DNA of 64,000 nt from Candidatus Brocadiaceae bacterium (GCA_012728835.1 JAAYEJ010000011.1:50990-114989), one strand, 5' to 3'. Positions 7,790-62,734 are shown, counted from the stretch's first letter. The notes: generated by a model from the sequence alone, not told the origin. Program-made: numbers and translations.

Positions 7790-7831
7790 CGCCGGCCCGA
7801 CCCACTGAGGCCCCGGCCCGCCGGGCCGGAC

Positions 7832-44195: not shown

Positions 44196-44456
44196 ATGCC
44201 GGAACGGGACGTGGTTGAGCGCGTGAACAAGCTGCTCGTCGAAGGCTTCGAGTTGGAGGAAGGCGTGCTCGCCCCCGCCGCCCTCATCCATGAGGACCTC
44301 GGCCTCGACAGCCTCGACACCGTCGATCTGGTTGTGGCGCTCGAGCGGGAGTTCGCCTGCCGGATCAGTGAGGAGCAGGCGCGTGCCATGCGGAGCCTCG
44401 AGGACATCTACCGGCACATACGGTTGCGCGTGGGCTGTCAGGAAGGAAGGGACTGA
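44196..44456 (+). CDS. Acyl carrier protein.
   Basis: 86 aa, with the phosphopantetheine site LGLDSLDTVDLVVALEREF. Confidence 0.85.
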   Translation: MPERDVVERVNKLLVEGFELEEGVLAPAALIHEDLGLDSLDTVDLVVALEREFACRISEEQARAMRSLEDIYRHIRLRVGCQEGRD

Positions 44457-44458
44457 CC

Positions 44459-45415
44459 TTGACTCCGGGTGTCCGTGCCGAGCAGGTACCCGCCCGCCGT
44501 CGCGCTCGTTCCTGGACGGGCAGAAGGCGCGGAGGAGTCGCCGGCAACTGGGCATTCACCGCGCTCGTCCGCTCGGGGGGCCTGTGGCCGGCCTATGCGC
44601 TCCTGGCATTCGTCGCGGCGTACTTCGTGGCGTTCGCGCCCGCGGCGCGGCGGGCCTCCGCCGCATACCGTCGGCGCATCGGGTTCCGCCAGGGCTCCTG
44701 GCCGTCGCGGCTCTGGGGCGCATATTGCCACTTCTTCCGCTTCGGCCAGATACTGCTGGACCGCTATGCGTTCGCCTCGGGCCATGCGGACTGGTTCCGT
44801 TTCGAGTTCATCGGTGAGGCACACGTCCGGTCCGCCCTGGCCAGGGGCAAGGGCGTCATCCTCATCAGCGCGCACTGCGGCAACTGGGAGGCGGCCGGGC
44901 ACTTCCTGCGGGCGCTCGACGTGCCCGTCAACATCGTCGGCTACGAGGGAGAACGGGCCGACATCCGGAGCGTCTACGAGCGGGCGGGGAGCGACCGGCT
45001 CCTCAACCTGGTCAACGCGGACGGGTCTCTGGAGACGGTCGCCGTCATCACTGCGGCACTGCGCCGGGGCGAGGTGGTTGCGATGCTGGCCGACCGGCTT
45101 CTGGACGAGAGCGGCGTGGTGGTGCCGTTCCTCGGTGCGCCCGCGCGCTTCCCGGGAGGGCCGTACGTGCTCGCGGCGCTCAGCGGTGCTCCGCTCATCC
45201 ACGCCTTCGCCATGCGGGAGGGCATGCGCCGCTACCGCGTCGTGGGGTATCCTCCCGAGGAGGTGCTCGCACCCGACGAGGGAGGCTGTCGCGAGGCCGT
45301 CAGGGAGCATGCGCGCAGGTTCGTGGCGCGCCTCGAGAGCGTGCTGCGGGAGCATCCCCTTCAGTGGCACAACTTCTTTGACTTCTGGCGCGACGACGAG
45401 GAAGGAGTCGCCTGA
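44459..45415 (+). CDS. Lysophospholipid/lipid-A-type acyltransferase (LpxL/HtrB-like LPLAT; ApeD-like).
   Basis: N-terminal TM, catalytic H(X)4D motif SAHCGNWE, and a lauroyl/myristoyl acyltransferase fold. Its TGATG stop/start overlaps the next gene. Confidence 0.75.
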   Translation: MTPGVRAEQVPARRRARSWTGRRRGGVAGNWAFTALVRSGGLWPAYALLAFVAAYFVAFAPAARRASAAYRRRIGFRQGSWPSRLWGAYCHFFRFGQILLDRYAFASGHADWFRFEFIGEAHVRSALARGKGVILISAHCGNWEAAGHFLRALDVPVNIVGYEGERADIRSVYERAGSDRLLNLVNADGSLETVAVITAALRRGEVVAMLADRLLDESGVVVPFLGAPARFPGGPYVLAALSGAPLIHAFAMREGMRRYRVVGYPPEEVLAPDEGGCREAVREHARRFVARLESVLREHPLQWHNFFDFWRDDEEGVA

Positions 45416-46812
45416 TGGGAGCGAACGAGGTGAGAGCCCCGGCTGTGAAACCGATCGCCGGGACGGAGTTCTCGCCGCGCGAGATCGAGGACGCTGTGCG
45501 CAGAGGGGGCCTGCTCTCCCTGGAACTCGAGATGACGCGTGCCTGCAACCTGCGGTGCATCTACTGCTACGCGCAGGCCGGCGAGCCGATGGAGAACGAG
45601 ATCCGCTTCGAGGAACTCGTCGATGCGGTGCAGCAGGCAACCGACCTGGGCGCGCGCAAGATGGTGGTCCTGGGAGGTGGGGAGCCGTGCCTCTATCGCG
45701 AGTTCCGGCGCCTTGTCGACTACCTGGCCGACCTGGACACCGTGGTGGAGGTCTTCACGAATGGGACGCTGATCGACCGGGACCTGGCCGGCTTCCTCTA
45801 CGACCGCGGCGTCTCCGTGGTGGTGAAGCGCAACAGCGGCGATCCGCAGACGCAGGACGCGCTGGCGGGGTCCCCGGGGACCTTCGATCAGATCCGCAAC
45901 GGACTCAACCTGCTGCTGGAGGCCGGCTACCCGGACGAGAACCACGGGATGGGCGTCCAGACGGTCATATGCCGCCGGAACCTGGCCGAGATCCCCCAGT
46001 TGTGGCGATGGGCACGCCGGCGCGGGATCACGCCCTACTTCGAGTGCATGACGCTTCAGGGACGCGCTGCGCACACCGAGAGCCTCCACGTCACCACGGC
46101 GGAGGTCCGCCGGGTTTTTGCGGAGCTCTGCCGCATCGACCGGGAGGAGTTCGGCCTCGCGTGGACTCCTCACCCGCCCCTGGTGGCTCTGAGCTGTTCG
46201 CGGCACCTCTACAGCATGGTCGTCAAGGCCAACGGCGATCTGTATCCCTGCGTCGGCGTGACCATCCCCGTCGGGAACATCCGACGCGAGCGGCTTGCCG
46301 ACGTCATACGCAACAGCCCGGTCATCGATGACCTGCGGCACGTCTATGAGAGGATCAAGGGGCCCTGCCGCAACTGCCGCTACAACGGCCTCTGCTACGG
46401 CTGCCGCGGGAACGCCTACCAGTTGACGGGCGACTACCTGGCGTCCGATCCCTGCTGCTGGGTGCCGGGTGAGGCCGCCGAAGAGGCGCAGGAGGACGGA
46501 TGCGCCGAGGAGTGCTCCCGGGGGCCTGCGTCGGAACCGAACGTGCTCTGCCGGAGCCTGTGCGACTTCATGCGGACGCAGCTCGTGGCCGAGGGCGTCG
46601 TGTTCGATGAGGACACGTCGTTCGCGGCCGTCGGGCTGGACTCGCTTGGTCTCATGGAACTCCTGCTGTTCGTTGAGAGGCGGTTCGGCGTCGAGGTGCC
46701 GGAAGCGGAGCTGACGCGTGCAAACCTGCACTCCGTACGGGCATTCGCCGAGTGTGTTGGGAGACTCTCCGGACTCGGCACGGCTGCGAGCGGCGAGGCG
46801 GGAGGACCATGA
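45415..46812 (+). CDS. Radical SAM enzyme with SPASM/twitch auxiliary-cluster domain, fused to a C-terminal acyl/peptidyl carrier-protein domain.
   Basis: CNLRCIYC (CxxxCxxC), a Gly-rich SAM motif VVLGGGEP, auxiliary Cys cluster CRNCRYNGLCYGCRGNAY, and a C-terminal carrier domain AAVGLDSLGLMELLLFVERRFGVEVPEAEL with Ser in the DSL motif. Confidence 0.75.
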   Translation: MGANEVRAPAVKPIAGTEFSPREIEDAVRRGGLLSLELEMTRACNLRCIYCYAQAGEPMENEIRFEELVDAVQQATDLGARKMVVLGGGEPCLYREFRRLVDYLADLDTVVEVFTNGTLIDRDLAGFLYDRGVSVVVKRNSGDPQTQDALAGSPGTFDQIRNGLNLLLEAGYPDENHGMGVQTVICRRNLAEIPQLWRWARRRGITPYFECMTLQGRAAHTESLHVTTAEVRRVFAELCRIDREEFGLAWTPHPPLVALSCSRHLYSMVVKANGDLYPCVGVTIPVGNIRRERLADVIRNSPVIDDLRHVYERIKGPCRNCRYNGLCYGCRGNAYQLTGDYLASDPCCWVPGEAAEEAQEDGCAEECSRGPASEPNVLCRSLCDFMRTQLVAEGVVFDEDTSFAAVGLDSLGLMELLLFVERRFGVEVPEAELTRANLHSVRAFAECVGRLSGLGTAASGEAGGP

Positions 46813-48158
46813 CCGTTCAGATGTGCCAACAGCCCCTGACCGGCGGCGACTACTTCGTTCTGGCCATCGATCACGAGATGCGCCGCGCCGGGATGCACGG
46901 GAACACCTGCCGTGCATTCGTGCATCTGGACGGCAGGGCGGAGGCGGAGGGACTGCGCGCCGCCATCCGGGCCTCCGGGCTGGCCGACTGGCTGGCGGGC
47001 GCGCACGTCGGCCGGGCGGCATCCGCCGGCGAGCCCGTCTGGCAATGGTCGCCCGACGTGGGGGACGTGCCGATCGAGGAGTGCTCGGTCCCCGCGGACT
47101 GGGGCGTCGGGCCGGACCTGCCGCCCCTGGCGCCGCAGGAGGACCTCCGCCCGGACGTGCCGCCCAACGTGCGGTTCCGCCTGATGCACCGGCCGGACGG
47201 CACGAGCGTTCTCGTCCTGCTCTGGCAGCATGCACTGATGGATGCCCACGGGGCCGAACTGCTGCTGCAGCACATCAGCGCCGCCGGGGCCGGCGCATCG
47301 CCCGCAACGCGCGATGTGTTGGGTCTCGGCCACGCCGCCCGGGCGGACGGCGCGGCGGCCGGCCCGCCCACACCGGGCGCAGCGGGTGCTGCGTGGCATC
47401 ATTGCATGTCATTCGTCGGCGACGTGAGCCGCCTGCCCGTGGCCTCGGTCACGCCCTGCGCCCCGGGGGGTGCCGGCGGTCGCAACCGCTTCCGGCGAAT
47501 CCGGTTCGACAGGGCGGAGTCGGACGCCATCCGGGCGAGGATCGAGGGTACAGGCGCGACGGTTGCCCGGAGCGTGTTCTGCATGGCCGTCTGCATGCGT
47601 GCACTCCAGGGCGTGCTTGCGGAGCGGTCGGTCGAGCCGGCCGCGTTCCTGGTGCCCGTGCCTCACGAGCGGCGGAAGGCAGGGGCGGCCGGGCCCATCT
47701 GCTCGAACCGCATCTCCTTCCTGTTCTACCGCGCCGAGCCGGCGGACATGGTGTCGCTGGAGGGCCTGATCGCGTCGCTCGTGAGACAGATGAGAAGCCA
47801 GGTGCGCGCCGGCATCCCGGCCTCGTTCGAGCAGGCGATGGAGGTGTTCCGCCGCGTGCCGCTCGGCGCCTACTCCCGCGTCGTGCACGGCCCCTCAGCC
47901 GGCCAGGTGGCCAGCTTCTTCTTCTCGGACACCGGGGACAGCTTCCGGGACGCCCCGAGGTTCCTCGGCGCCCGCATTCGGGACGTCCTTCACGTGCCGC
48001 CCGTCCCGTTCCCACCGGGCGTCGCGATCGTCGCCGGCCAGTTCGGCGATCGGTTGAGCATCGTGCTCTCATGGGTCGAGGGCTGCCTCGATTCCGGCGA
48101 GGTCGACATGCTGGAGCGGGCCATCCGTTCGCAGATGCTGGGCGGAGGGGCCTCATGA
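46809..48158 (+). CDS. Condensation-domain-like / WS-DGAT-like CoA-dependent acyltransferase superfamily protein.
   Basis: ATG 46809 follows GGAGG and overlaps the upstream stop (ATGA). It has an HHxxxDG-like motif WQHALMDAHG and is 449 aa. Confidence 0.55.
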   Translation: MTVQMCQQPLTGGDYFVLAIDHEMRRAGMHGNTCRAFVHLDGRAEAEGLRAAIRASGLADWLAGAHVGRAASAGEPVWQWSPDVGDVPIEECSVPADWGVGPDLPPLAPQEDLRPDVPPNVRFRLMHRPDGTSVLVLLWQHALMDAHGAELLLQHISAAGAGASPATRDVLGLGHAARADGAAAGPPTPGAAGAAWHHCMSFVGDVSRLPVASVTPCAPGGAGGRNRFRRIRFDRAESDAIRARIEGTGATVARSVFCMAVCMRALQGVLAERSVEPAAFLVPVPHERRKAGAAGPICSNRISFLFYRAEPADMVSLEGLIASLVRQMRSQVRAGIPASFEQAMEVFRRVPLGAYSRVVHGPSAGQVASFFFSDTGDSFRDAPRFLGARIRDVLHVPPVPFPPGVAIVAGQFGDRLSIVLSWVEGCLDSGEVDMLERAIRSQMLGGGAS

Positions 48159-49546
48159 GGTTCCTCATGGTCTCGGGCAACCAGGAGCAGCTTCCGTTCC
48201 CCGTCGCCCCGCTCGGGGCGCTCTGTGTCGCGGGATCGCTCCAGGAAGCGGGCCATTCGGTCGATCTGGTCGACCTCTGCTTCGCCCGCTCGCCCTGCGA
48301 GGACCTGCGGACCGTCCTCCAGGAGGGCGGGTATGACGCCGTGGGCCTGAGCATCCGGAACCTGGACAACTGCCTCTACGGCAACCCGGTGTCCTATTTC
48401 GACCAGTTCCGCCGATTGGCCGAGACGGTCAGGGCCGCCGCCGACGTGCCGCTGATCCTCGGAGGCAGCGGGTTCTCCGCCGCCAGCCGCGGGTGGATCG
48501 AGCGCCTGGACGCCTTCTGCGGCATCATCGGCGAAGGAGAGCGGGCCCTCCCGCAGGTTCTGGAGGCCCTCGACCGGGGCGAGGAGCCCGATGCCGTGCC
48601 GAACGTCATCCGGCGCGGGCAGACGCGGCCGCCCACCCCGGTGCTCGACATCGACCTGGACTGCATCCCGCTGCCGGCCCACGAGCACTGCGACTACGAG
48701 CAGTACCTGTCGCGCGGCGGCTTCGTCGGCGTGCAGGCAAAGCGCGGCTGCCCCTTCCATTGTATCTATTGCACCTACCCCTTGCTGGAGGGGTGCTCCT
48801 ACCGGGTCCGCCACCCCGAGCGCGTCGTGGACGAGATCGCCACGGTGCACCAGTCCACCGGGGCGGGCTACTACTTCTTCACCGACAGCGTCTTCAACGC
48901 GCCGCGCGACCATGCTCTGGCCATCTGCCGCGAGATAGCCCGGCGGGGGCTGCGGGTTCAGTGGATGAGCTACTGCAACCCCGTCGGCTTCGACAGGGAA
49001 CTGGCGCACGCCATGGCGGAGGCGGGCTGCATCGGCGTGGAGTTCGGCCTCGACGCGGTCACCGACAAGATGCTGCTCGCCATGGGCAAGCCGTTCGGCC
49101 TGGACGAGATTCGCGTCAGCCTGGAGGCGGCGGCGCACGCGCGCATTCCCTTCGCCGTGCACCTGCTCTTCGGCGGGCCCGGTGAGGACGTTGCGGATGT
49201 CGAGGACGCCCAGGAGTTCCTGGACTCCTGCGCGGCGCCGGACGCCGTGTTCGCCTCCGTCGGCATCCGCCTCTACGCGGACACCCCGGCCGAGAGGATC
49301 GCGCGTGAACTGGGAGCGCTCGCCGCGGACGCGGATCTGTTCGAGCCGGTCTACTTCGTGTCCGAGGGACTCGGCAAGGACCCGGTGGGCGTTCTGGACG
49401 GCATCGCCCGTCGCCGGCCGGCCTGGTCCACCCAGGCGGACTGGCAGCGCCCCGTCCTGCAGGTCGCTCAGCGTCTGGCCAACCGCAACGGCGAACGCCC
49501 CCAGTGGCGTCACATCCGGGACTACGGGGAGTACCTGCGATGGTGA
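48155..49546 (+). CDS. B12-binding radical SAM enzyme (class B; methylase or C-C bond forming), copy 1.
   Basis: It has an N-terminal cobalamin-binding Rossmann-like domain, a radical-SAM CPFHCIYCTYP motif, and an ATGA overlap with the upstream gene. It is 463 aa. Confidence 0.75.
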   Translation: MRFLMVSGNQEQLPFPVAPLGALCVAGSLQEAGHSVDLVDLCFARSPCEDLRTVLQEGGYDAVGLSIRNLDNCLYGNPVSYFDQFRRLAETVRAAADVPLILGGSGFSAASRGWIERLDAFCGIIGEGERALPQVLEALDRGEEPDAVPNVIRRGQTRPPTPVLDIDLDCIPLPAHEHCDYEQYLSRGGFVGVQAKRGCPFHCIYCTYPLLEGCSYRVRHPERVVDEIATVHQSTGAGYYFFTDSVFNAPRDHALAICREIARRGLRVQWMSYCNPVGFDRELAHAMAEAGCIGVEFGLDAVTDKMLLAMGKPFGLDEIRVSLEAAAHARIPFAVHLLFGGPGEDVADVEDAQEFLDSCAAPDAVFASVGIRLYADTPAERIARELGALAADADLFEPVYFVSEGLGKDPVGVLDGIARRRPAWSTQADWQRPVLQVAQRLANRNGERPQWRHIRDYGEYLRW

Positions 49547-49661: not shown

Positions 49662-51101
49662 ATGAGCACCTATCAACTGCTGCGGCACTCGGCGGAGGCG
49701 TGGGGACGACGGCCGGCCGTGATCGACCGGCACGGGCGGATTGACTACCACACGCTCTTCGCGCAGGTCGAGGACGTCCGCCGGCAGCTCCGGGGCCTGG
49801 GGGTCGGGCCCGGGCACGGCGTGGGGATCATGGCACCGAACGGACGCTCCTTCATCATCGGCGCCTTCGCCGCGACGGGGTGCGGCGCCACGATGCTGCC
49901 GATGTCGCCGACGCTTCGGCAGACGGAGCTTGACGGATTCCTTCGCGACGTGCGGGTGCACGCGATTCTGGGCCAGGGGCTTGCCTTCCGGCCTGAGGAC
50001 GGCCGGTCGTCCCAGGTAGACGTGCCGGGCGTCGGGCCGATGCCGTTCACGTGGACGGACGCGCCGCGCAACAGGCCGTGCGTGGAGTTCGTGCCGGACG
50101 CGGCCTTCGTCCGCCTGACCTCCGGCACCACGGGGCGGGCGAAGGGCGTGGTGCTCTCCCACCGGAGTGTGATCGAGCGAACGGCCGCCGCCAACCGCGC
50201 GCTGGGTCTGTCGTGCGAGGACACGGTGGTCTGGGTCCTCCCGATGGCATTCCATTTCTTCGTCTCGATCGTGCTGTACCTGCGCGTCGGGGCGGCCATC
50301 GTCGTGTGTGCCGACCACCTTGCCGAGACCGTCCTGGAGGACGCCAACCGCCACGGGGGGACGTTCCTGTACGCGGCGCCCGTCCATTACCGCCTGCTGG
50401 TCGCCGAGGCGTCCGGCGCACGGTTCCGGACGGTGCGCAGGGCGCTGTCGACGGCGGTGGGCCTGCCTCTGGAGGTGGCCCACGGGTTCCGCGAGCGGTT
50501 CGGGTTCCCCCTTGCCCAGGCGTACGGGGTGATCGAGGTGGGGCTGCCGCTGGTGAACCTGGAGCGGCCCGAGGAGAGGCCGGGCTCCGTGGGGCGTCCG
50601 CTGCCGGACTGGGAGGTGGCCATCGTCGGCCTGGACGCAGCGCCCCTGCCCCCCGGGGAGGTGGGGCAGTTGGCGCTGCGTGGGCCGGGCCTGTTCGAGG
50701 GCTACCTGAGCCCCCCGACCAGGAGGGTCGACGTCCTGCACGACGGGTGGTTCATGACGGGCGACATGGCCTGGCGGGATGAGGAGGGCTTTGTTACGAT
50801 AGCGGGCCGCTGCAAGTCCATGATCAACGTTGGCGGCAACAAGGTCTTCCCGGAAGAAGTGGAGCATGTGCTGGGCATGCACCCCGCCGTCCGGGCATGC
50901 CGCGTACGGGCCGAGCCGCACCAACGGCTCGACGAGGTCGTCCATGCCGACGTGGTCCTTGCGGATCCGTGCCGACCCGTGGACGCCGAGGAACTCGTCG
51001 CCTTCTGCCGCCGCCGCCTGTCGAGTTTCAAGGTGCCCGGCTCGATCACCTTCGTCCCGGCGATCACGGAGACCGCCAGCGGCAAGCCCTTTCGTTACTG
51101 A
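49662..51101 (+). CDS. Acyl-AMP ligase / AMP-dependent synthetase (ApeH-like adenylating enzyme).
   Basis: ATG 49662 follows GGAGG. It has the adenylation motifs LTSGTTGRAKGV (A3), YGVIEVG (A5) and TGDMAWRDEEGFVTIAGRCKSMINVGGNKV (A7-A8). It is 479 aa. Confidence 0.8.
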   Translation: MSTYQLLRHSAEAWGRRPAVIDRHGRIDYHTLFAQVEDVRRQLRGLGVGPGHGVGIMAPNGRSFIIGAFAATGCGATMLPMSPTLRQTELDGFLRDVRVHAILGQGLAFRPEDGRSSQVDVPGVGPMPFTWTDAPRNRPCVEFVPDAAFVRLTSGTTGRAKGVVLSHRSVIERTAAANRALGLSCEDTVVWVLPMAFHFFVSIVLYLRVGAAIVVCADHLAETVLEDANRHGGTFLYAAPVHYRLLVAEASGARFRTVRRALSTAVGLPLEVAHGFRERFGFPLAQAYGVIEVGLPLVNLERPEERPGSVGRPLPDWEVAIVGLDAAPLPPGEVGQLALRGPGLFEGYLSPPTRRVDVLHDGWFMTGDMAWRDEEGFVTIAGRCKSMINVGGNKVFPEEVEHVLGMHPAVRACRVRAEPHQRLDEVVHADVVLADPCRPVDAEELVAFCRRRLSSFKVPGSITFVPAITETASGKPFRY

Positions 51102-51170: not shown

Positions 51171-52595
51171 ATGAAGATACTGCTGGTCAAGCCGGCGCCG
51201 CGGCTCGATACCGTCCGAAGTGTCCACGGGCTGGTCTTCCTGGAGCCGATTGAACTCGGCTACGTCGCGGCGGCCGTGCCGGCGGGGCATGACGTGAAGA
51301 CGCTCGACCTCCGCATGGCGCGTCGGCCGGGCCAGGCGTTCACTCGAACACTGCGCTCCTACCGGCCGGACGTGGTCGGCCTTTCCGGATACACGCACGA
51401 GGCGCGGCAGGTCGTCGCCCTCGCCGGCGCGGTGCGCCGGACGCTGCCGGGGGCCAGGGTCGTCGTCGGCGGCCACCACGCCACCGTCTCACCCGAGACC
51501 TACAACGTGCCGGACGTCGACGCGATCGTCCGCGGCGAGGGATGCGCTCCCTTCCGAGCCGTGATCGAGGCCCTCGCCGCCGGCCGGGCACCGTCCGGAA
51601 TCGTCAACGTGATGCTCCCCGGGGCGGACTTCGACGCGGGCGAGGCCGCCCGGCTGCCGGTCTACCCCGATCTGGACGGCCTGCCCGTTCCGCGGCGGGA
51701 CCTGTGGGACCCGGCGGCGTACTTCTGCGTCTGGCCGTCGGAGAGGCACCCCCGCGGTCAGACGATCTTCCCGCCCGTGGCGCTGGTGCGCTCGTCCTTC
51801 GGCTGCCACATGGACTGTTCGTTCTGCGTCGTGCCCCGGCTCTGCCGGCACCGCCACATGACCCGTTCGCCGGAACTGGTGGCGGAGGAGATTGCTTCGG
51901 TTGCCGCGAGCCACATCTACTTCTGCGACGACGAAACGTTCCTGGACCACGATCACGCCCGCCGATTGGCCCAGGCGATCCGCGAAAGGGGCATCCGGAA
52001 GCACTACTTCGCCTGGGCGCGTTCGACCTCCGTCGTCCGTGCGCCGGAGCTGTTCCGGCAGTGGCACCAGATCGGGCTGGACGCCGTCTTCCTCGGGTTC
52101 GAGGCCGTGACCGACGAGGAACTGCAGGCCATCTCGAAGCACGGGACGGTTGCGGACAACGTGCGCGCCCACGAGACGCTGCGGGAGATGGGCGTGGCCG
52201 TGCAGGGCGGCTTCATGGTGCGCCCCGACTTCGGGCGCGCGGAGTTCGACAGGCTGCGACAGACGATCGTCCAGATGCCGCCGGCGCAGATCACCCTGAC
52301 GGTCTACACGCCGTCTCCGCTGAGCCCGGCCTGGTCCGCCGAGAGCGCGGAGTTCGTGTGCGACCCGTTCGACCTGCACGATTGCATGCACCCGCTCACG
52401 CCCACCGTTCTGCCGCTGAAGGAGTTCTACGAGCAGTTCGCGTCGCTGGTGTGGGACGGCGCCCGGAAGACGCCTTTCCAGACCCAGCGGAGCCGCATAC
52501 CGCGCCGCGATCTGGTGCGCCTCTGGTGGAGCGCCACCGGCTACGTGCGCAGCATAAGGAAGGCCTACCGGGACTTCCCCAAGGAGCTGTGGTGA
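51171..52595 (+). CDS. B12-binding radical SAM enzyme, copy 2.
   Basis: It has an N-terminal B12-binding domain (MKILLVKPAP... GLSGYTHEA...), a CHMDCSFCVVP radical-SAM motif, and is 474 aa. Confidence 0.75.
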   Translation: MKILLVKPAPRLDTVRSVHGLVFLEPIELGYVAAAVPAGHDVKTLDLRMARRPGQAFTRTLRSYRPDVVGLSGYTHEARQVVALAGAVRRTLPGARVVVGGHHATVSPETYNVPDVDAIVRGEGCAPFRAVIEALAAGRAPSGIVNVMLPGADFDAGEAARLPVYPDLDGLPVPRRDLWDPAAYFCVWPSERHPRGQTIFPPVALVRSSFGCHMDCSFCVVPRLCRHRHMTRSPELVAEEIASVAASHIYFCDDETFLDHDHARRLAQAIRERGIRKHYFAWARSTSVVRAPELFRQWHQIGLDAVFLGFEAVTDEELQAISKHGTVADNVRAHETLREMGVAVQGGFMVRPDFGRAEFDRLRQTIVQMPPAQITLTVYTPSPLSPAWSAESAEFVCDPFDLHDCMHPLTPTVLPLKEFYEQFASLVWDGARKTPFQTQRSRIPRRDLVRLWWSATGYVRSIRKAYRDFPKELW

Positions 52596-52601
52596 CGTGC
52601 G

Positions 52602-53096
52602 ATGGACCCGTATCCCCCTGTAGCTGCGACGGGATGCACGATGCGGCGACCGCCCCAGGGAAGGTACCTCGAGCACCGGACCCACGTGCGCGTGCGGTTC
52701 CAGGAAGTGGATTCGCTACAGGTCGTGTGGCACGGGCACTACCTGAGCTACTTCGAAGACGTGCGGGTGGCCCTGGGCCGCCGGTACGGGCTCCGGTACG
52801 ACGACATCCGCAACGCCGGCCTGCGCGCTCCGGTCGTCCACCTTTCGTGCGACTTCCTGGCTCCCGCGCGCTTCGACGATGAACTCGAGCTGAGAGCCCG
52901 ACTCTTCGAGCGCGAGGAGGCCAAGATCGAGTTTCACTACGAGGTCTTCAACGTCGGCACGGCCGCGCTGCTGGCCACGGGCCGGACCGTCCAGGTCTTC
53001 ACCGACGAACGCGATGAGTTGCTGCTGACCCTGCCGCCGTTCATGTGCGCGTTCTACGAACGGTGGCGGGACACGATGCAGGGAAGCCATGGATGA
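52602..53096 (+). CDS. Hot-dog fold acyl-CoA/ACP thioesterase (YbgC/4HBT-like; ApeK-like).
   Basis: VRVRFQEVDSLQVVWHGHYLSYFEDVR is the classic YbgC-type motif. It is 164 aa, and the start could instead be the downstream Met. Confidence 0.7.
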   Translation: MDPYPPVAATGCTMRRPPQGRYLEHRTHVRVRFQEVDSLQVVWHGHYLSYFEDVRVALGRRYGLRYDDIRNAGLRAPVVHLSCDFLAPARFDDELELRARLFEREEAKIEFHYEVFNVGTAALLATGRTVQVFTDERDELLLTLPPFMCAFYERWRDTMQGSHG

Positions 53097-54270
53097 TCGC
53101 TGTGCCATCATAGGGGCGGACGTCGTCAACGCACTCGGCCTGGGAGCGGAGCAGGTCTGGGCCGCAATGATGGATGGTGTCTGCGGCATCCGCCCGTTGA
53201 GGCGGTTCCCCCGCGGGAAGTACGCCACGGACTTCGCCGGCGAACTGACGCCCGACACGGTAGAGGAATTGCGGGCCTCGGATGGCGGCGAATCCGGCGG
53301 CCTGGCGTTCCCGATGGCCCTGTATGTGGCGCGGCGTGCCCTCTCCTGCACCTCGGCGGCGCACCGGCGGGCTGGGGCGGTCGGGCTCGTCCTGTCAACG
53401 ACCAAGGCGGAGATGGGCGACCTGGAGCGGCTGGCGACGGGCTCCGACGCCCCCGCCAATCCGCGCTACAATCCGTATTCCCTGGCCTGCGACGTTGCGC
53501 GCGCGCTGGGCATCGGGGGGCCGGTGCTGGCGGTGTCGAACGCCTGTGCCTCGGGCCTCATCGCGATGGTGGAGGCCGCGCGGATTTTGGAGCGCGGCGA
53601 GGCCGACGCGGTGCTCGTCGTGGGCGTGGACGTGCTCACGGACTTCGTCCTGTCGGGCTTCTCCGCGTTCCGTGCTCTCAGTCCGCAGCCGTGTCGCCCC
53701 TACGATGCCGACCGGGACGGGCTGTCGCTGGGAGAGGGGGCGGGCGCGCTGTGTCTTGCGCGCGAGCCGGCGGAGGGCGAGCACGCCCTGGCCGAGCTTG
53801 CGGGGTGGGGTATCTCGAACGACGCCAACCACATCACGGCGCCCTCGCGCACGGGCGACGGCCTGCGGAACGCCGTGGGCAGTGCGCTTGTTCGGGCCGG
53901 CATGGAGTGCTACGATGTCCATTACGTCAACGGCCACGGCACCGGCACGGTCTACAACGACGCGATGGAGGCCAGGGCCCTGTGCGATGCCCTGGCGGGG
54001 TGCCCCGTTCCCGTCAGTTCGATGAAGGGCTACTTCGGCCACACGCTGGGTGCGGCGGGCGTCATCGAGGCGGCCATCTGCCTCACCGCACTGCGGGAAC
54101 GGACCGTCCCGGCTTCCCTGGGGCTGAGCACGCCCGGTGTCGGCCGGCCGCTCCGCGTCGCCAGGAGTCCCCTTGCCCTCGGCGAGATGGAGAACGTCCT
54201 CTCGGTCAAGTCCGGCTTCGGCGGTGTGAATGCCGCAGTGATCCTCAGCAGGCCCGGGGGCGGTCGATGA
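53089..54270 (+). CDS. Beta-ketoacyl synthase (KS; ApeC-like elongating KS).
   Basis: Active-site VSNACASGLIAM, with NGHGTGT and GHTLGAAG His motifs. It is 393 aa and overlaps its neighbours at both ends. Confidence 0.85.
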   Translation: MDDRCAIIGADVVNALGLGAEQVWAAMMDGVCGIRPLRRFPRGKYATDFAGELTPDTVEELRASDGGESGGLAFPMALYVARRALSCTSAAHRRAGAVGLVLSTTKAEMGDLERLATGSDAPANPRYNPYSLACDVARALGIGGPVLAVSNACASGLIAMVEAARILERGEADAVLVVGVDVLTDFVLSGFSAFRALSPQPCRPYDADRDGLSLGEGAGALCLAREPAEGEHALAELAGWGISNDANHITAPSRTGDGLRNAVGSALVRAGMECYDVHYVNGHGTGTVYNDAMEARALCDALAGCPVPVSSMKGYFGHTLGAAGVIEAAICLTALRERTVPASLGLSTPGVGRPLRVARSPLALGEMENVLSVKSGFGGVNAAVILSRPGGGR

Positions 54271-55064
54271 AGGACGTTGTAATCACTGATTGCGCATGCG
54301 TGGCCGAGGACGGCTTCGGCAACCGCCGTACGTGGCAGTCCTGGGACGGTGCGGCGCCCGGCGCCGACGACCTGCGCTGGAGCATGTTCTCAGAGACGCC
54401 CTTTGACGCGTTCCGGCGCCTGGATGCCCTCTGCAGGTACGCGCTCTCGGCGGTCGAACTGCTGACCTTGCCCCCGCCGGCGGCCGGCGGCCGGCGGCCC
54501 GACCTTGGCCTCTGCCTGGGCACCCAGTACGGATCCCTGGACGCGGACATTGCCTTCATCCGGACGGCGAACAACGCCTCCGGCCCCAGCCCGAGGTTGT
54601 TCACCTACACGCTGCCCAGCACGGCGCTGGGCGAGATCGCCATACGGCACCGGATCACCGGGCCGAACCTGTGCGTTCTGTGCGGGCCGGACAGCGGCAT
54701 GGCCGCCCTGCGCGAGGGGACCTTCATGGTCGCCGACGGGACCGTGGCGGGATGCGTCTGCCTCGGGTGCGATGCCGTCTCGATGCCGGTGGCCGGCCGG
54801 TCGGTGGGCTACGCTTACGCATTTGTGCTGGAACGGGCGCCCGCAGCGTGCGAGCGCGAAGGACCGCTGGCCCGCCTCATACCCGGCGATGCGGGATGCA
54901 CGCCGGCGCGGTGCGTTGCGGCCCACGACGCTCTGCCGGCGCTGTTCCGCTACGTAGCTTCCTCGGCGCGGCCGGCCGGTGAACCCCCTTGTGAGTCACT
55001 GTGCCTGCGAGCCGCTGCGCACCCGGCGGCGCCGTGCCTCCTATGCAACCTGGACGCGGGATAG
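54267..55064 (+). CDS. Short KS-like partner lacking the active-site Cys (chain-length-factor-like; ApeO-like).
   Basis: 265 aa with a KS N-terminal-like fold, and LCLGTQYGSL where the Cys-containing motif would be. It has an ATGA overlap with the upstream KS. Confidence 0.6.
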   Translation: MKDVVITDCACVAEDGFGNRRTWQSWDGAAPGADDLRWSMFSETPFDAFRRLDALCRYALSAVELLTLPPPAAGGRRPDLGLCLGTQYGSLDADIAFIRTANNASGPSPRLFTYTLPSTALGEIAIRHRITGPNLCVLCGPDSGMAALREGTFMVADGTVAGCVCLGCDAVSMPVAGRSVGYAYAFVLERAPAACEREGPLARLIPGDAGCTPARCVAAHDALPALFRYVASSARPAGEPPCESLCLRAAAHPAAPCLLCNLDAG

Positions 55065-55068
55065 AGCA

Positions 55069-55342
55069 GATGCCAGATATCGTCGAGGATCTCAAGGAGC
55101 AGGTCATCAAGGCGTTGAACCTGCGGGACGTGACGCCGGAAGACATCGACCCCGACGCGCCGCTGTTCGGCGAGGGACTGGAACTCGACTCCATCGACGC
55201 GCTCGAGATCGTCGTCATGCTCGAGAAGCGCTACGGCATACGCGTCGAGGACATGGACGTCGCCCGTCAGGCGTTCCGTTCCGTGAACGCCCTGGCGGAG
55301 TTCGTCACGGAGAACAGGGAGTCGTGCGAACAGACCGAGTAG
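55069..55342 (+). CDS. Acyl carrier protein (second ACP).
   Basis: 91 aa, with LELDSIDALEIVVMLEKRYG. Confidence 0.8.
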
Positions 55343-56526
55343 CCATCACGGGCATCGGCATCGTCTCGGCTGCGGGATGGACGCCGGAGGAGTTGTGGTC
55401 TGCCATCGAGGCGGAGCGGTCTGGGCTGGGACGCCTGACGCTCTTCGACTCGCCGCGCTGCGGCCACGTGCCCGTGGGGCAGGTGATCGGCGATCCGGCC
55501 GCAAGGAGCGGCCTGTCGCGGGGGTCGCGGACCGATCACTTCGCCGTCTGCGCCGCCCGCGACGCGCTCGAAGACTCGGGACTGCGGGAGCCGGGCCCGG
55601 CGGCGGACCGCCGCCGAATGGGCGTCGTCCTCGGCGGCACAACGGGGGGAATGCTCAGCACCGAGGCCTTCCTGCAGAAGCTGCTGCTGGACGAGGCGTT
55701 CGACGCGGCTCTGCTGCGCGATCACCAGTGTTGCGCCGCCACAGAGGCCGTCGCTGCCGGCCTGCAGTTGCGGGGGTTCCGAGCCACCGTCTCCGACGCA
55801 TGCGCATCCAGCAACGCGGCCGTCGCGATCGGCTGCGACGTCCTGCGGTCCGGCGAGGCCGACGTCATGCTCGCCGGCGGGGCGGATTCGCTCACGCGGC
55901 TGACGCTGAACGGCTTCTGCTCGCTCCTGAACGTCTCGCACGAGGGCGCCCGGCCCTTCGATGCCGAACGGTCGGGGCTGAGCCTCGGCGAGGGGGCCGG
56001 AATGCTCGTGCTGGAGCGGGAGGAGGCAGCCGTTGCCCGCGGTGCCCGCATCTACGGCCTGGTCGCCGGCTACGGCAGCACCTGCGACGCGAACCACCTG
56101 ACGGCGCCGATGCCCGACGGCTCGGCGGCCGCAAACGCCATGCGGCGAGCGCTGGAGATGGCGGGGATTGCGCCGGCTGCCGTCGACTACGTGAACGCCC
56201 ACGGCACGGGCACGGTGACGAACGACCTTGCCGAGGCACGCGCGCTGCGGGCGGTCTTCGGCAGTCGCCCCCCCGCCGTGTCCTCGACCAAGCGGTTCTT
56301 CGGCCACACGCTGGGGGCCGCCGGCGCGATGGAGGCGGTTGTCTGCGTCCTCGCCATGCAGAGACAACGGTTCCCGGCCAACCTGGGCTTCCGCACAATG
56401 GACGCCGAGGTCGGCTTCGCCCCCGTTGCACACACGTGCGACGGCACGATCCGGGCAATCGTGACGAACTCGTTCGGCTTCGGCGGCAACAACTGCTCGC
56501 TGGTCATCTGTGGACGGGAGGCATAG
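55324..56526 (+). CDS. Beta-ketoacyl synthase (KS).
   Basis: GTG 55324. Active-site SDACASSNAAV, with NAHGTGT and GHTLGAAG His motifs. It is 400 aa. Confidence 0.8.
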   Translation: MRTDRVAITGIGIVSAAGWTPEELWSAIEAERSGLGRLTLFDSPRCGHVPVGQVIGDPAARSGLSRGSRTDHFAVCAARDALEDSGLREPGPAADRRRMGVVLGGTTGGMLSTEAFLQKLLLDEAFDAALLRDHQCCAATEAVAAGLQLRGFRATVSDACASSNAAVAIGCDVLRSGEADVMLAGGADSLTRLTLNGFCSLLNVSHEGARPFDAERSGLSLGEGAGMLVLEREEAAVARGARIYGLVAGYGSTCDANHLTAPMPDGSAAANAMRRALEMAGIAPAAVDYVNAHGTGTVTNDLAEARALRAVFGSRPPAVSSTKRFFGHTLGAAGAMEAVVCVLAMQRQRFPANLGFRTMDAEVGFAPVAHTCDGTIRAIVTNSFGFGGNNCSLVICGREA

Positions 56527-57672
56527 ATGACGTCGCCGGGGCCGGGCAGGCACGCGGGTGTGAGCATCTGCGGCATGGGGCTCGTGCTGCCGGGCCCGAC
56601 GCCGGGCATGCTGCCGTCCGTGCCGTCGCCCCGGCTGGCCGCGGGGCCCGTGTACTCCTGCCGCGAACTGCCGGCCCTGCCGCCCCGGTACGCCAGAGCG
56701 CTGCGACGGCTGTGCCGTGCGGACCACCTGGCCCTGGCCGCAGCCGTGCAGGCTGTCGGGGACCGTGGCGGTCAGGAAGGCCCGGACGACGAGACCGCCG
56801 TGTGCGTGGGGACGGGGATGGGCGTTGTGGGCGCGACGGCGGCCTTCCTGGAGAGCATGGTCGAGGAGAACGAGGGCAACCCCAAGCCGACGGCCTTCAC
56901 CAACTCCCTCCACAACGTCCCGGCCGCTCAGATCGCCGTCTACCTCGGGCTGCGCGGCCCGAACAACACCTTCATCCACGGGTCCGTCTCCTTCGAACTC
57001 GCACTGTGGCGGGCGCTGCGGATGATGGAGACCGGGCAGGCCCGGCGGGCCGTCGTCGTCGGCGTTGACGAGGCCAGCCCCTACGTCGTCACCGCCGGGC
57101 AGCGCCGGGGCTGGTTCCGCGGCGACGGCGCCTCGCTGGATCCCATGGCGGGGTCGGCGGCGCGTGTGCGCGGGACGGTGCCGGGGGAAGGCGCCGGCGC
57201 CCTGCTGCTCTGCCGCGAGTCCGATGCCCCGCAGGGCCGCCGTGAGGCACGCCTGGCCGGGCTCCGGATCGAGCCGCCGGCCGATCCGCGCATCGCCGTG
57301 CGCGACCCGGACGCCGAGGCGGAGTTCGTGGTCGACGCCCTCGAATCAGCCGGGGTCGCGATGGAGGATGTCGATCTGCTCCTGCTGGGCGCGAACGGCG
57401 ATTGCCGGATCGACGACGCCCACCGCCGCGTGGTCGGTGCTCTTGCACGGTCCGGCCGCGTGTCGTGCGGCGTGTTCAAGTCCTCCTGCGGCGAGTTCTG
57501 TGCCGCCGCAGCGGTGGGCGTCGTGCTCGGCGCCATGGCCGTGCGGGACGGGGCACTGGCGCCCGCGATCCGGCTCCTGGGGCGGCCCGTCCGGGCCCGT
57601 GCCGTCTCCTGCGTGGCATGCTATAACCTGTATGAGACGGGCTACCGCAGCCTCTGCGTGGTGAAGGCATGA
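56527..57672 (+). CDS. KS-like protein without catalytic Cys (chain-length-factor-like partner).
   Basis: 381 aa. It has a KS fold, but the active-site region reads AFTNSLHNVPAAQIAV (no Cys). It directly follows the KS with no gap. Confidence 0.65.
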   Translation: MTSPGPGRHAGVSICGMGLVLPGPTPGMLPSVPSPRLAAGPVYSCRELPALPPRYARALRRLCRADHLALAAAVQAVGDRGGQEGPDDETAVCVGTGMGVVGATAAFLESMVEENEGNPKPTAFTNSLHNVPAAQIAVYLGLRGPNNTFIHGSVSFELALWRALRMMETGQARRAVVVGVDEASPYVVTAGQRRGWFRGDGASLDPMAGSAARVRGTVPGEGAGALLLCRESDAPQGRREARLAGLRIEPPADPRIAVRDPDAEAEFVVDALESAGVAMEDVDLLLLGANGDCRIDDAHRRVVGALARSGRVSCGVFKSSCGEFCAAAAVGVVLGAMAVRDGALAPAIRLLGRPVRARAVSCVACYNLYETGYRSLCVVKA

Positions 57673-58451
57673 ATCGCTTCGGAGTCGCAACGCTTGCCGT
57701 CCTGGCCTGCTGGGCCGGCGTCGTCCTGGCTCTGGACGGGGCCGCGCGCTGGTGGGTCGGCGGCGCCCTGACGGTGGCGTACCTCGTCGCACTCGGCGTC
57801 GGCGTGGCCTTCCCCCGGGCCGGGTTCTTCTGCCGGGCCTTCTGCCGCGGGGATGCGGCGCGCCGGCAGGTGGCGTTCACGTTCGACGACGGTCCGGATC
57901 CGGCCGCGACCCCCGCGCTGCTGGACCTGCTGAGGGAGCAGCGCGTGCCCGCCGCCTTCTTCTGCATCGGGCAGAAGGCGCAGGAGCACCCCGACGTGGT
58001 CCGGCGCGCGGTGAGGGAGGGGCACGTGGTCGGCAACCACACGTTCCGGCACAGCCCGTGGACGAACTTCCTGTCCGCGCATGGCCTGCTGCGCGAGATC
58101 GGGCGTGCCCAGGACGCCCTGGGGCTGGTCGTCGGCCGCCGGCCCCGCTATCTGCGCAGTCCGGTGGGGCTGACGAACCCCCGCTTCCCCGGGGCGCTCT
58201 GCCGATCCGGGACGACCTTCATCGGTTGGGACGTGCGGTCGCTGGACCGGGGCGCCGCGCCCGACGCCGTGGTGGCGCGGGTGTGCAGGAAGGCGCGCCC
58301 CGGCAGCGTCTTGCTGATGCACGACGGCGGCGCGGACGCCGAGGCGCTGGTCGAGGCCGTGTCCCGGATCATCGCGCAGCTCAGGGACCGGGGCTATGCA
58401 TTCGTCGCCCTGGAGGACATGGGCGCCGGCCCGCCCTACGTGGACGGATGA
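57669..58451 (+). CDS. NodB-type polysaccharide deacetylase family protein (membrane-anchored).
   Basis: N-terminal TM, then motifs FTFDDGP, VGNHTFRHS, and RSPVG ... LLMHDG. Confidence 0.75.
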   Translation: MNRFGVATLAVLACWAGVVLALDGAARWWVGGALTVAYLVALGVGVAFPRAGFFCRAFCRGDAARRQVAFTFDDGPDPAATPALLDLLREQRVPAAFFCIGQKAQEHPDVVRRAVREGHVVGNHTFRHSPWTNFLSAHGLLREIGRAQDALGLVVGRRPRYLRSPVGLTNPRFPGALCRSGTTFIGWDVRSLDRGAAPDAVVARVCRKARPGSVLLMHDGGADAEALVEAVSRIIAQLRDRGYAFVALEDMGAGPPYVDG

Positions 58452-58488
58452 CGCGGCGGCGACACGGCGTTTCAACGGGAGAAAGCAC

Positions 58489-59295
58489 ATGCACGCAGAT
58501 CATCGGAGACGGCTGCCCGCAGTCCTCGGCCTTCTGTTCGCGGCCGTGTTCGCCGTGTCTGCGCCGCTCGGGCATGCGGCAGATGCGGAAGGGATGGTCG
58601 GGGCGGCGCCGCGTTCGCTCAGCGGCGAGGAGGTGGCGGAGCTGCTCAAGAGACTGGAGACCAGGCTTCAGAGCACGTCGTCTCTGAGGGCGGACTTCAT
58701 CCAGGAGAAGCACATGAGCATCTTCACGGACGTCCTGACGGCGCGCGGGACGCTGCTGTTCGAACGCCCGAACGCCGTGCGGTTCGAGATGATCGAACCG
58801 TTCCGCTCGGTGCTCGTCGCCAGGGGGAGGGCCGTCGCGAAGTACGAGTGCGTGGAGGGCCGCTGGGAGAAACTGGACCCCGCCGCCGCATCGGCCATGA
58901 AGGCGGTGACGGACCAGATGATCCTGTGGCACGGGGGATCGCTCCAGGAGCAGAAGGGCGCCTACGACATCGGCGCCGTCCGGGCCGAACACACCACGAT
59001 CGTGCTGACGCCGCGCGACCGGGAGGTGCGCGAGTACATCGGCGCCGTGGAACTCACGCTGGACGAAGAGGAGAGCTACTTCCAATGCGTGACGATCCGC
59101 GAGAGCGGAGGCGATTACACGTGCATGCGCTTCGCGCGGCCGGCGCGCAACCTCAGCATCCCCAAGGCGGTGTTCGACCCGGCGCTTGACGAGCCGGTCC
59201 GGCTCGAAGACGTCATGCCGTCTCCCCCGACCGCGCCGGACCCGCAGCCCCCGCCGGCGCCGCGAGCCGATCAGGGCGCGGCGCCCGACTCCTGA
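58489..59295 (+). CDS. LolA-like outer-membrane lipoprotein carrier family protein (ApeL/ApeN-like), with a Pro-rich C-terminal tail.
   Basis: ATG 58489 (GGGAGA). It has a signal peptide LPAVLGLLFAAVFAVSAPLGHA and a LolA-like beta-barrel region (FIQEKHMSIFTDVLTARGTLLFERPNAVRFEM). Confidence 0.6.
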   Translation: MHADHRRRLPAVLGLLFAAVFAVSAPLGHAADAEGMVGAAPRSLSGEEVAELLKRLETRLQSTSSLRADFIQEKHMSIFTDVLTARGTLLFERPNAVRFEMIEPFRSVLVARGRAVAKYECVEGRWEKLDPAAASAMKAVTDQMILWHGGSLQEQKGAYDIGAVRAEHTTIVLTPRDREVREYIGAVELTLDEEESYFQCVTIRESGGDYTCMRFARPARNLSIPKAVFDPALDEPVRLEDVMPSPPTAPDPQPPPAPRADQGAAPDS

Positions 59296-60056
59296 ACCGG
59301 TGTGACGGCCCCGGCTTGCGCGAGCGTGAGGACGCGGACAGTCGCCTCGTAGCCGCCACGGCGGTCGGCGATCCTGATCGTCCGTGGGATCGGCTGCGGC
59401 CATGCGGTGAGGACCTCGTGGTCCGAGAACTCAATCCTGTGGCGCCATCTGCCGTTGCGCGCGGCTTCGACGTAGCGGATCAGGCGGCGGCTCACGGCGT
59501 CAAACGTGAAGACGCGTTGCCCGCCGTCCGGGGTCGATTCGGCGAACCCCACCTCGTCGGGGCCGAAGCGGGAGAGGCGGGCGTCGGGTGACGGCCTGGC
59601 GAAGAAGAGGCGCTCCATGGTCCGGACGGCGTTCTCGGCGAAGCGGTCCGCCGGGAAGCCCGGCGCGGCCCTCAGCAGCTTGAGCGTGTCCCCCGGGGAC
59701 TGTTCGGCGGCGAAGACCGTCGTCCCCACGTCGGTGAGCGCGAGCAACCGGACGTAGCCCGGCGTCTCGCACGCCACGAGGCCGCTGAGTGTGAGCCCCC
59801 GCCCGCGGACCGTGAGCAGCACCCGGTGTTGTGTGGAGAACCGGCGCGGGTAGGCGGCATCCAGGGCGCCGCGCAGCTCGGCCGCAAGCGCCCCGTCATC
59901 CAGCGGCTGTCCCGGCAGGGGAGCCGTCCGGCAGCCCTGCGCCGCGAGCGCGGCCAGCAGCGTCAGCAGGCAACCGCTCAACGCCCGCACCTGGAACACG
60001 CGCTTCTCCCATCGCAGAAGGCACACGCCGGCGGGCGGCGCCATGACGCCCGACAC
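59271..60056 (-). CDS. Predicted lipoprotein (lipobox LAAQGC), possibly a LolB/LolA-fold partner.
   Basis: 261 aa ORF; the start is uncertain. It is convergent with, and slightly overlaps, the LolA-like gene. Confidence 0.45.
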   Translation of the reverse strand: MSGVMAPPAGVCLLRWEKRVFQVRALSGCLLTLLAALAAQGCRTAPLPGQPLDDGALAAELRGALDAAYPRRFSTQHRVLLTVRGRGLTLSGLVACETPGYVRLLALTDVGTTVFAAEQSPGDTLKLLRAAPGFPADRFAENAVRTMERLFFARPSPDARLSRFGPDEVGFAESTPDGGQRVFTFDAVSRRLIRYVEAARNGRWRHRIEFSDHEVLTAWPQPIPRTIRIADRRGGYEATVRVLTLAQAGAVTPVQESGAAP

Positions 60057-62587: not shown

Positions 62588-62734
62588 CACTCGTGCGGCC
62601 CCTTCAGGGAGCTGGGCGCCTGCCCCTGTGAGACAGGCCGCCATTATCGGAGAAGGGCCGACCCCCGTCAACGCCGTGCGACATCCGGCAGAGCGTCTCG
62701 TGCGGCGCGTCCTTCGAGAGCGACCCCGCCGCGA

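Follow-up and report, generated by a model that had tools for sequence, protein, structure and literature searches.

An open reading frame (ORF) in a 64,000-nucleotide stretch of DNA from a Candidatus Brocadiaceae bacterium (GCA_012728835.1 JAAYEJ010000011.1:50990-114989; the whole stretch is called the window here) encodes in one chain a radical S-adenosylmethionine (SAM) enzyme with a SPASM domain and, behind a flexible linker, a carrier domain that is named ACP2 in this paper. This ORF is a genuine fusion, and its two constituent proteins are separate in all known relatives. The comparison of related gene clusters suggests that the fusion is a one-off event in a single lineage, which would have arisen by deletion of the gene that lay between two neighbours, and that the carrier probably serves the enzymes of a widespread cassette to which it belongs. 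Loci and proteins used for comparison are designated by L and P numbers, respectively, and the features of the window are collected in Table 1.

Three domains in a single chain

The original prediction described a radical-SAM enzyme with an auxiliary cysteine cluster and a C-terminal carrier, and all three domains were recovered with Pfam hidden Markov models (HMMs) above threshold. Radical_SAM (PF04055) scored 76.9 bits against a cutoff of 29.5, SPASM (PF13186) scored 38.5 bits against 21.5 at residues 261-321, and PP-binding (PF00550), the match looked for in the carrier part, scored 39.2 bits against 20.8 (E 8.4e-10) at residues 393-448. The three cysteines of the radical-SAM motif (C44, C48 and C51) are invariant in an alignment with 44 homologues, and the same is true of the seven cysteines of the SPASM region (C261, C279, C318, C321, C327, C330 and C348). 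A seven-cysteine SPASM motif holds two auxiliary [4Fe-4S] clusters. The phosphopantetheine-attachment serine of the carrier is S410 (nt 46642-46644, codon TCG), which lies within ...VGLDSLGLMELLLFVERRFG... and is preceded by D409. The conservation of this serine among homologues was also looked at, and the Asp-Ser pair is kept in 82 of the 82 aligned members of the ACP2 carrier family. The peptide quoted in the original prediction is present, and its description as a bona fide carrier is borne out by the HMM score and this invariant pair.

The radical-SAM/SPASM half was modelled by AlphaFold2 (AF2) with a predicted local distance difference test score (pLDDT) above 90. In the carrier part, helices were placed at residues 377-392, 410-424 (starting at S410) and 441-452 with a pLDDT of only 40-58, the low values being due to an alignment without depth in the carrier region. 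The fusion protein could not be assigned to any of the named SPASM equivalogs, as every NCBIfam cutoff was far out of reach: AhbD gave the best score (137.7 bits against 500), TIGR04053 reached 132.5 bits against 395, and NirJ, MftC, PqqE and others were likewise far below their cutoffs.

The architecture had been called unusual, and the searches bear this out. In a search with the whole fusion protein, PP-binding was found in the query alone among the best 120 protein clusters; the other 119 clusters listed are radical-SAM/SPASM proteins of 341-390 aa, at most 71% identical and without a carrier domain. Desulfobulbales, Thermodesulfobacteriota and Nitrospirota have homologues of the radical-SAM/SPASM part with 50-60% identity. 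An exhaustive phmmer search of 1.84 billion representatives with the carrier region gave 479 matches, the best of which are free-standing proteins of 85-140 aa. No radical-SAM protein was identified among the best 150 of these 479 matches, and the long proteins examined among the 150 were one fusion of ACP2 to a condensation-fold enzyme and multi-carrier or polyketide synthase-type proteins. When the carrier region was used on its own, a word-indexed protein search returned no matches. The window protein is thus the sole case among the 120 closest radical-SAM/SPASM clusters and the best 150 carrier relatives, and no description of the ACP2 cassette or of radical-SAM-carrier fusions was found in the literature. 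The architecture is new, but it is assembled from known domains.

The source is metagenome-assembled and of low coverage (about 4-6x, read from contig names), and such an ORF might result from an overlooked stop codon, a frameshift or chimeric joining introduced by assembly or sequencing. Against such an artefact, the DNA of the fusion gene is 100% identical in five contigs from five different samples, which were assembled independently in three naming styles or assemblers (SPAdes NODE, MEGAHIT k141 and JGI) and whose flanks differ by 1-2 single-nucleotide polymorphisms. Moreover, the coding signature runs in frame over the junction, where the GC content of third codon positions (GC3) stays at 0.80 through the carrier part, and no in-frame start codon suitable for separate expression of the carrier was found within the fusion ORF. 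The identical DNA in five contigs, the continuous GC3 and the missing internal start indicate that the fusion is real, and an artefact is highly improbable. At its 5' end, the ORF shares a TGATG with the preceding LpxL-like acyltransferase gene, whose stop codon overlaps the start codon of the fusion. The predicted ATGA overlap with the next gene is present as well (ATG 46809-46811, TGA 46810-46812), with GGAGG a few bases upstream.

The junction can be placed by comparison with L013 and with P0002-P0081. Free-standing radical-SAM/SPASM proteins stop 10-15 mostly acidic residues past ...DPCCW; the window protein has retained this acidic tail (VPGEAAEEAQED), which is followed by about 16 unrelated residues and then by helix I of ACP2. 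The DNA similarity to L013 ends at about nt 46461, and the linker is predicted by AF2 to be disordered (pLDDT below 50 at residues 353-379).

The ACP2 cassette and its distribution

ACP2 belongs to a cassette with the gene order ACP2, a condensation-fold enzyme (C-like), a B12-binding radical-SAM enzyme in a subset of loci, a flavin adenine dinucleotide (FAD) oxidoreductase (PF12831) and an AMP-binding ligase (AMP-ligase). A genome scan with the C-like alignment gave 45 loci, which were annotated with the window proteins. At least 45 genomes carry the cassette and belong to Planctomycetota, Nitrospirota, Sumerlaeota, Bacteroidota, Verrucomicrobiota, Bdellovibrionota, Deltaproteobacteria and many Methylococcales, and cultured strains account for three of the loci, namely Methylocucumis oryzae Sn10-6 (L029), Methylovulum psychrotolerans Sph1 (L034) and Methyloglobulus morosus KoM1 (L056). 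In 39 of the 41 evaluable genome loci, ACP2 immediately precedes the C-like gene in the same orientation, with a gap of about -50 to +85 nt as estimated from domain alignments, and the FAD and AMP-ligase genes come next in nearly all cassette loci.

The carrier is a protein of its own in these loci. In L009, L011 and L012, a free-standing carrier gene of 90-100 aa is located immediately upstream of the C-like relative, and its product aligns to the C-terminal domain of the window protein from helix I to the end. ACP2 is likewise a separate small gene in 44 genome-scan and homologue loci, in L058-L062 and in L066, and the seven loci obtained by a metagenome scan with a 6-sequence ACP2 alignment all have free-standing carriers. 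The carrier of L013 and the window domain share 55% identity, and the signature LCxFLR...GxDSxxLxELLLFxERxFG...LTxxN is common to the free-standing carriers of L009-L056 and to the stand-alone matches P0127-P0166. The possibility that the fused carrier is a duplicate of ACP1 or ACP3, the other carriers of the window, was ruled out: ACP2 is a distinct family with its own signature, and ACP2 gives the best score for the ORFs that precede C-like genes. In L053, L015, L020, L030, L055 and L062, ACP2 is found within long stop-to-stop ORFs, which were considered as further fusions and rejected, because the sequence ahead of the domain is open only by non-coding read-through in GC-rich DNA and an ATG lies just in front of the domain.

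The only other ACP2 fusion known is independent of that in the window. P0137 (542 aa; L065, 2529-4157, JGI Ga0452209_012458) carries ACP2 fused N-terminally to C-like as a thiolation-condensation (T-C) didomain. Its locus contains the cassette-type B12-binding radical-SAM gene (B12mod), the FAD oxidoreductase and the AMP-ligase, and it is devoid of radical-SAM/SPASM and ketoacyl synthase (KAS) genes. This cassette adjoins two CDP-alcohol phosphatidyltransferase genes and another B12-binding radical-SAM gene, neighbours which hint at phospholipid head-group or lipid chemistry. In Methylovulum L034, two tryptophan-halogenase-like flavoenzymes (7123-8364 and 14114-15352) flank the cassette in an aryl polyene (APE)-type cluster with MMPL, Ketoacyl-synt_2 and ApeP-like genes, which suggests a halogenated aryl-polyene-like product there.

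The cassette and the radical-SAM/SPASM gene are not bound to each other. About 35 of the 45 cassette loci, Methylococcales among them, have no radical-SAM/SPASM gene within 10 kb. Conversely, L006 and L007 contain the radical-SAM/SPASM gene together with its core B12-binding radical-SAM partner (B12core) and no cassette, and L062 contains the cassette and B12core and no radical-SAM/SPASM gene. The identity of the radical-SAM/SPASM proteins to that of the window is independent of the cassette as well, being 64% for the cassette-less L006, 66% for L013 and 59% for L009. The occurrence of the cassette without radical-SAM/SPASM, and of radical-SAM/SPASM without the cassette, shows that the modules can exist apart. 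Either of the core radical-SAM genes can evidently be lost independently of the other, as B12core is absent in the window and the radical-SAM/SPASM gene in L062.

The gene that follows the fusion had been described as a condensation-domain acyltransferase. No match for its product was obtained in Pfam or NCBIfam even at E<=10, Condensation PF00668 included, and a single-sequence search of the PDB gave nothing. Five further clusters of this family were found in a word-indexed protein database, and W139, H141, D145 and G148 are invariant in an alignment of the six members. The motif of the window protein reads W139-Q-H141-xxx-D145-xx-G148, in which the first His of HHxxxDG is Gln; it is His in the other five members. 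The family profile gave a weak match to the condensation (C) regions of nonribosomal peptide synthetases (NRPS) in the PDB (E 9e-4). The AF2 model has a predicted template modelling score (pTM) of 0.77, and Foldseek returned 274 PDB matches for it at E<=1e-3, led by AzeD, SrfA-C, PCP-C didomains, PapA5 and SgcC5 (E 1e-14 to 4e-18, template modelling (TM) score at most 0.70). The label therefore stands for the motif and for the modelled two-lobed chloramphenicol-acetyltransferase-like fold, and the predicted structure makes it right at that level; an HMM match to go with it was not obtained. In comparison with SgcC5 (4znm), PapA5 (1q9j), AzeD (8s6l) and a PCP-C didomain (7kvw), the C-like model shares the fold at TM 0.55-0.70 and keeps the catalytic His-xxx-Asp-xx-Gly motif. 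It differs from these condensation enzymes in the Gln at the first His and in a sequence identity of only 12-19%. Free-standing NRPS-type condensation enzymes act on carrier-tethered acyl groups; the C-like gene directly follows a carrier gene, and the two are fused as T-C in P0137.

Origin of the fusion and role of the carrier

The closest syntenic relatives of the window are L013 (a metagenome-assembled genome (MAG) of Planctomycetota), L059, L066 and L009. L013, L059 and L009 share the order LpxL, radical-SAM/SPASM, B12core, ACP2, C-like, B12mod, FAD and AMP-ligase, and L066 has the same order as L013 with a Fer4 gene added between B12core and ACP2. The B12core protein of L013 scored 437.1 bits, above the TIGR04072 cutoff of 360. 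No orthologue of B12core or of the FAD oxidoreductase was found anywhere in the 64-kb window. Judged by the gene orders of L013, L059, L066 and L009, the fusion is apparently explained by the loss of B12core between radical-SAM/SPASM and ACP2. The simplest history would be a deletion that ran from the stop codon of the radical-SAM/SPASM gene, via B12core, to the 5' end of ACP2. The B12-binding radical-SAM protein B12c of the window was ruled out as a displaced core enzyme, since it is HpnR-like and shares no more than 24-25% identity with B12core. In some relatives (L066, 6018-6866; L012, 2777-3625), a gene for a multi-[4Fe-4S] ferredoxin-like protein lies between B12core and ACP2; it is absent in the window.

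Two genes of the closest relatives, B12core and the FAD oxidoreductase gene, are thus missing from the window, and the fusion is known from one population only. Both observations would be expected if the cluster were an eroding relic, in which the fused gene is tolerated as a by-product and at least one half has lost its function. Several points contradict such decay, which is quite unlikely. Every ORF in the cluster is intact, stop and start codons overlap, and the in-frame GC3 is strong (0.80-0.89). The cluster-binding cysteines and the Asp-Ser pair of the carrier have all been retained, and the divergence of ACP2 from its L013 counterpart matches that of the neighbouring genes. Each of the cassette genes left in the window is intact, with 47-69% identity to its counterpart in L013, which argues that a functional carrier is still needed.

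The reading that we favour, and which we regard as probable, is that a deletion fused the core radical-SAM/SPASM enzyme with ACP2 and that the carrier serves the cassette enzymes. C-like and AMP-ligase are taken as the conserved partners of ACP2 on account of the P0137 fusion and the condensation fold, and the three together are a dissociated adenylation-thiolation-condensation (A-T-C) unit. In the proposed mechanism, a phosphopantetheinyl transferase would modify S410, and the AMP-ligase would adenylate a carboxylic acid and load it onto the S410 arm. The tethered acyl group could then be tailored by the cassette B12-binding radical-SAM enzyme, and C-like, with H141 as the catalytic residue, would pass the acyl group to an amine or hydroxyl acceptor or otherwise process it. 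The acceptor might be located on a lipid or polyene made by the ketosynthase (KS), chain-length factor (CLF), ACP1 and ACP3 machinery. The radical-SAM/SPASM half would keep its ancestral role in the core pathway, and the disordered linker of about 27 residues would let the carrier reach its partner enzymes in trans. If any radical-SAM enzyme acts on the tethered acyl group, B12mod is a better candidate than the radical-SAM/SPASM half.

Several considerations weigh against this favoured reading. Gene fusions often link proteins that interact directly, and the two modules are always adjacent in planctomycete-type clusters, so a direct interaction between radical-SAM/SPASM and ACP2 is possible. 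The pathway might have been rewired when B12core and the FAD oxidoreductase were lost. Confidence in the carrier part of the AF2 model is, as given above, low. Finally, the fusion occurs in one lineage only, and selection on the fused state is therefore not measurable.

It had originally been concluded from the fusion that radical chemistry is carried out on an intermediate tethered to the enzyme's own carrier. In such self-tethering, the substrate of the radical-SAM/SPASM half would sit on the phosphopantetheine arm in cis, hydrogen abstraction would lead to C-C or C-X bond formation or to desaturation on the thioester, and C-like would off-load the product. The fusion is in frame, intact and the sole form of ACP2 in this organism, its linker is long enough to reach its own active site, and radical-SAM/SPASM, B12core and ACP2 form one co-directional gene string in L009, L013, L059 and L066. 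Radical-SAM enzymes have also been proposed in ACP-dependent pathways, such as Jaw5 (PMC13459092) and MitD with the carrier MmcB (PMC8621148), and the loss of B12core was perhaps compensated by coupling the remaining radical-SAM enzyme to the carrier. The implication is not supported, however, by the comparison with other loci. ACP2 is free-standing in all the other loci of the genome scan and homologue set, in L058-L062 and in L066, as it is in the top stand-alone matches, and its conserved neighbours are the C-like, FAD oxidoreductase and AMP-ligase genes. Most cassette loci, as well as L062 with its retained B12core, have no radical-SAM/SPASM gene. Most radical-SAM/SPASM loci, in turn, are without ACP2, yet ACP1 and the LpxL-like acyltransferase are always immediately upstream. 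Furthermore, the fusion is explained by the B12core loss, the other known fusion joins ACP2 to the C-like enzyme, and no confident docking is seen in the AF2 model, in which the carrier part has a low pLDDT. Chemistry in cis is accordingly possible, but we do not expect it.

The fusion may alternatively be read as a Rosetta stone, according to which the radical-SAM/SPASM enzymes of 'ladderane-type' and APE-like clusters act in general on a carrier-tethered acyl thioester; this lineage would then display the enzyme permanently joined to the carrier of its substrate. Such an extension to the whole family is doubtful.

Cluster context and significance

The fusion gene lies in a cluster that corresponds, by Pfam content and by synteny with L006, L007 and L013, to the description of an APE-like type II fatty acid synthase (FAS-II) cluster of the kind called 'ladderane' by antiSMASH (Table 1).

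Table 1. Features of the fusion ORF and of the surrounding gene cluster (positions in the window)
Feature	Position (nt)	Strand	Basis or remark
Fusion ORF (radical-SAM core, SPASM, flexible linker, carrier domain)	45415..46812	+	ATG start, 465 aa, NLW49515.1
Radical_SAM core	45529..45960	+	Pfam, residues 39-182
CX3CX2C motif (C44, C48, C51), binds radical-SAM [4Fe-4S] cluster	45544..45567	+	sequence; invariant in homologues
SPASM domain, seven invariant Cys (C261 to C348)	46195..46461	+	Pfam, alignment
Linker, residues 350-376	46462..46542	+	junction comparison, L013 DNA comparison, AF2
Carrier domain ACP2, residues 377-465	46543..46809	+	orthologue of free-standing carrier of about 90 aa; Ser S410
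KAS	42812-44074	+	
ACP1	44196-44456	+	
LpxL-like acyltransferase	44459-45415	+	TGATG overlap with fusion ORF
C-like condensation-fold enzyme, free-standing, 449 aa	46809..48158	+	fold (predicted), motif, family profile
B12mod, cassette-type B12-binding radical-SAM, TIGR04072 paralogue	48155..49546	+	identity to L009/L011/L012/L013 genes
AMP-binding (ANL) adenylating enzyme of cassette, presumed ACP2 loader	49662..51101	+	
B12c, third type of B12 radical-SAM, HpnR-like	51171..52595	+	
Remainder of FAS-II core: 4HBT, KAS, 265-aa half-KS-like, ACP3, KAS, CLF-like KS, polysaccharide-deacetylase-like, LolA-like	52641..59295	+	
Short-chain dehydrogenase/reductase (SDR) ketoreductase	60060-60794	-	divergent arm
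AAT/TPR protein	60902-62671	-	divergent arm
Acyltransferase-methyltransferase (AT-MT)	62735-63997	-	divergent arm; matches C-terminal part of L007 MMPL-AT-MT protein

The B12mod protein is 50-60% identical to the product of the gene right after C-like in L009, L011, L012 and L013 and scored 327.8 bits, under the TIGR04072 cutoff. B12c scored 223 bits with the model of the hopanoid C-3 methylase HpnR (cutoff 650), and its gene is paired with the AMP-ligase gene in the window and in L013, L015 and L053. Feruloyl-, oxalyl-, fatty-acyl- and aryl-acid ligases and NRPS adenylation domains are all at about the same distance from the AMP-ligase, so that no call of its substrate is possible. The 265-aa protein of the core (54267-55064) gave a weak match to the N-terminal half of ketoacyl synthase only, and its gene is kept between KAS and ACP3 in all related clusters (L006, L007 and L013). 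L006 and L007 additionally carry ApeI/ApeP-like dehydratases, and L007 an MMPL fusion protein and an amine-oxidase/phytoene-desaturase-like gene. In the divergent arm, a 261-aa ORF (59271-60056, minus strand) has no family match, and the AAT/TPR protein, of 589 aa, consists of an acyl-CoA:6-APA-acyltransferase-like (PF03417) domain and TPR repeats. The source MAG is labelled Candidatus Brocadiaceae, and the window has a GC content of about 70%, unlike the cultivated anammox genera; with the closest synteny to an unclassified Planctomycetota MAG, the label may be a loose one.

Aryl-polyene-like FAS-II clusters labelled 'ladderane' by antiSMASH are widespread outside anammox bacteria, and their product is unknown (PMC9902471). 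The paired radical-SAM genes of such clusters were discussed as Kuste3343/Kuste3342 and DP1855/DP1853 by Rattray et al. 2009 (PMC2649909), and the window radical-SAM/SPASM protein is inferred, from synteny and taxon names, to belong to this pair family. Compared with ladderane- and Desulfotalea-type clusters, the window has the same KAS, ACP, LpxL-like and radical-SAM/SPASM genes, followed by 4HBT, KS/CLF, ACP, deacetylase-like and LolA-like genes. In those clusters, the radical-SAM/SPASM gene is followed by the TIGR04072 'lipid biosynthesis B12-binding/radical SAM protein', whereas this partner is absent in the window and the window protein has the extra carrier domain. The anammox-specific ladderane cluster is characterized by amxACP, amxFabZ, a phytoene-dehydrogenase-like gene and a B12-binding radical-SAM gene (PMC10139942). 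No match to the L007 amine-oxidase/phytoene-desaturase-like protein or to B12core was found in the window, which in these two respects does not correspond to that cluster, and we make no claim that the organism produces ladderanes.

Clusters for APE and xanthomonadin use a ligase that loads the starter acid onto a dedicated ACP (ApeH/ApeE and XanA2/XanC, respectively). The window resembles them by gene content in having an AMP-ligase and a small dedicated carrier inside a type-II KS/CLF cluster, and LpxL-like acyltransferase, 4HBT, LolA and MMPL genes are also shared; the likeness goes further in the Methylovulum locus, with its ApeP-like, Ketoacyl-synt_2 and halogenase-like genes. In contrast to these systems, a condensation-fold enzyme is always part of the cassette, as is a PF12831 FAD oxidoreductase, and a B12-binding radical-SAM enzyme often is. 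On the side of the enzyme, Foldseek matched the radical-SAM/SPASM half to SkfB, SuiB, BlsE, PqqE and anSME. SkfB, SuiB, PqqE, anSME, CteB and BlsE share with it the radical-SAM core and the seven-cysteine SPASM domain (fold E 1e-11 to 2e-17). These solved enzymes act on peptides, proteins and nucleoside sugars, whereas the window family occurs in lipid-type clusters, and none of them has a carrier domain.

Unusual lipid chemistry has been suspected for almost 20 years for the radical-SAM enzymes of 'ladderane-type' FAS-II clusters, none of which has been reconstituted and whose substrates are unknown (PMC2649909; PMC10139942; PMC13459092). If the Rosetta-stone reading were true, the fusion would give the missing form of the substrate and a self-contained construct for a first in-vitro reconstitution; if the self-tethered reading were true, radical chemistry on a tethered acyl chain could be tested with the fusion protein as a ready-made construct. 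If the favoured reading is true, the case calls for caution, since proteins that became fused when the gene between theirs was lost do not necessarily act on each other directly as enzyme and substrate. The finding of wider reach is the ACP2, C-like, FAD and AMP-ligase cassette with its optional B12-binding radical-SAM enzyme, together with the two natural fusions. The locus defines this cassette as an unnamed and widespread one, with a condensation-fold enzyme that lacks any HMM model. The two fusions (radical-SAM/SPASM::ACP2 in the window and ACP2::C-like in L065) point to the proteins that should be co-expressed, and the presence of the cassette in cultured methanotrophs makes a knock-out possible there.

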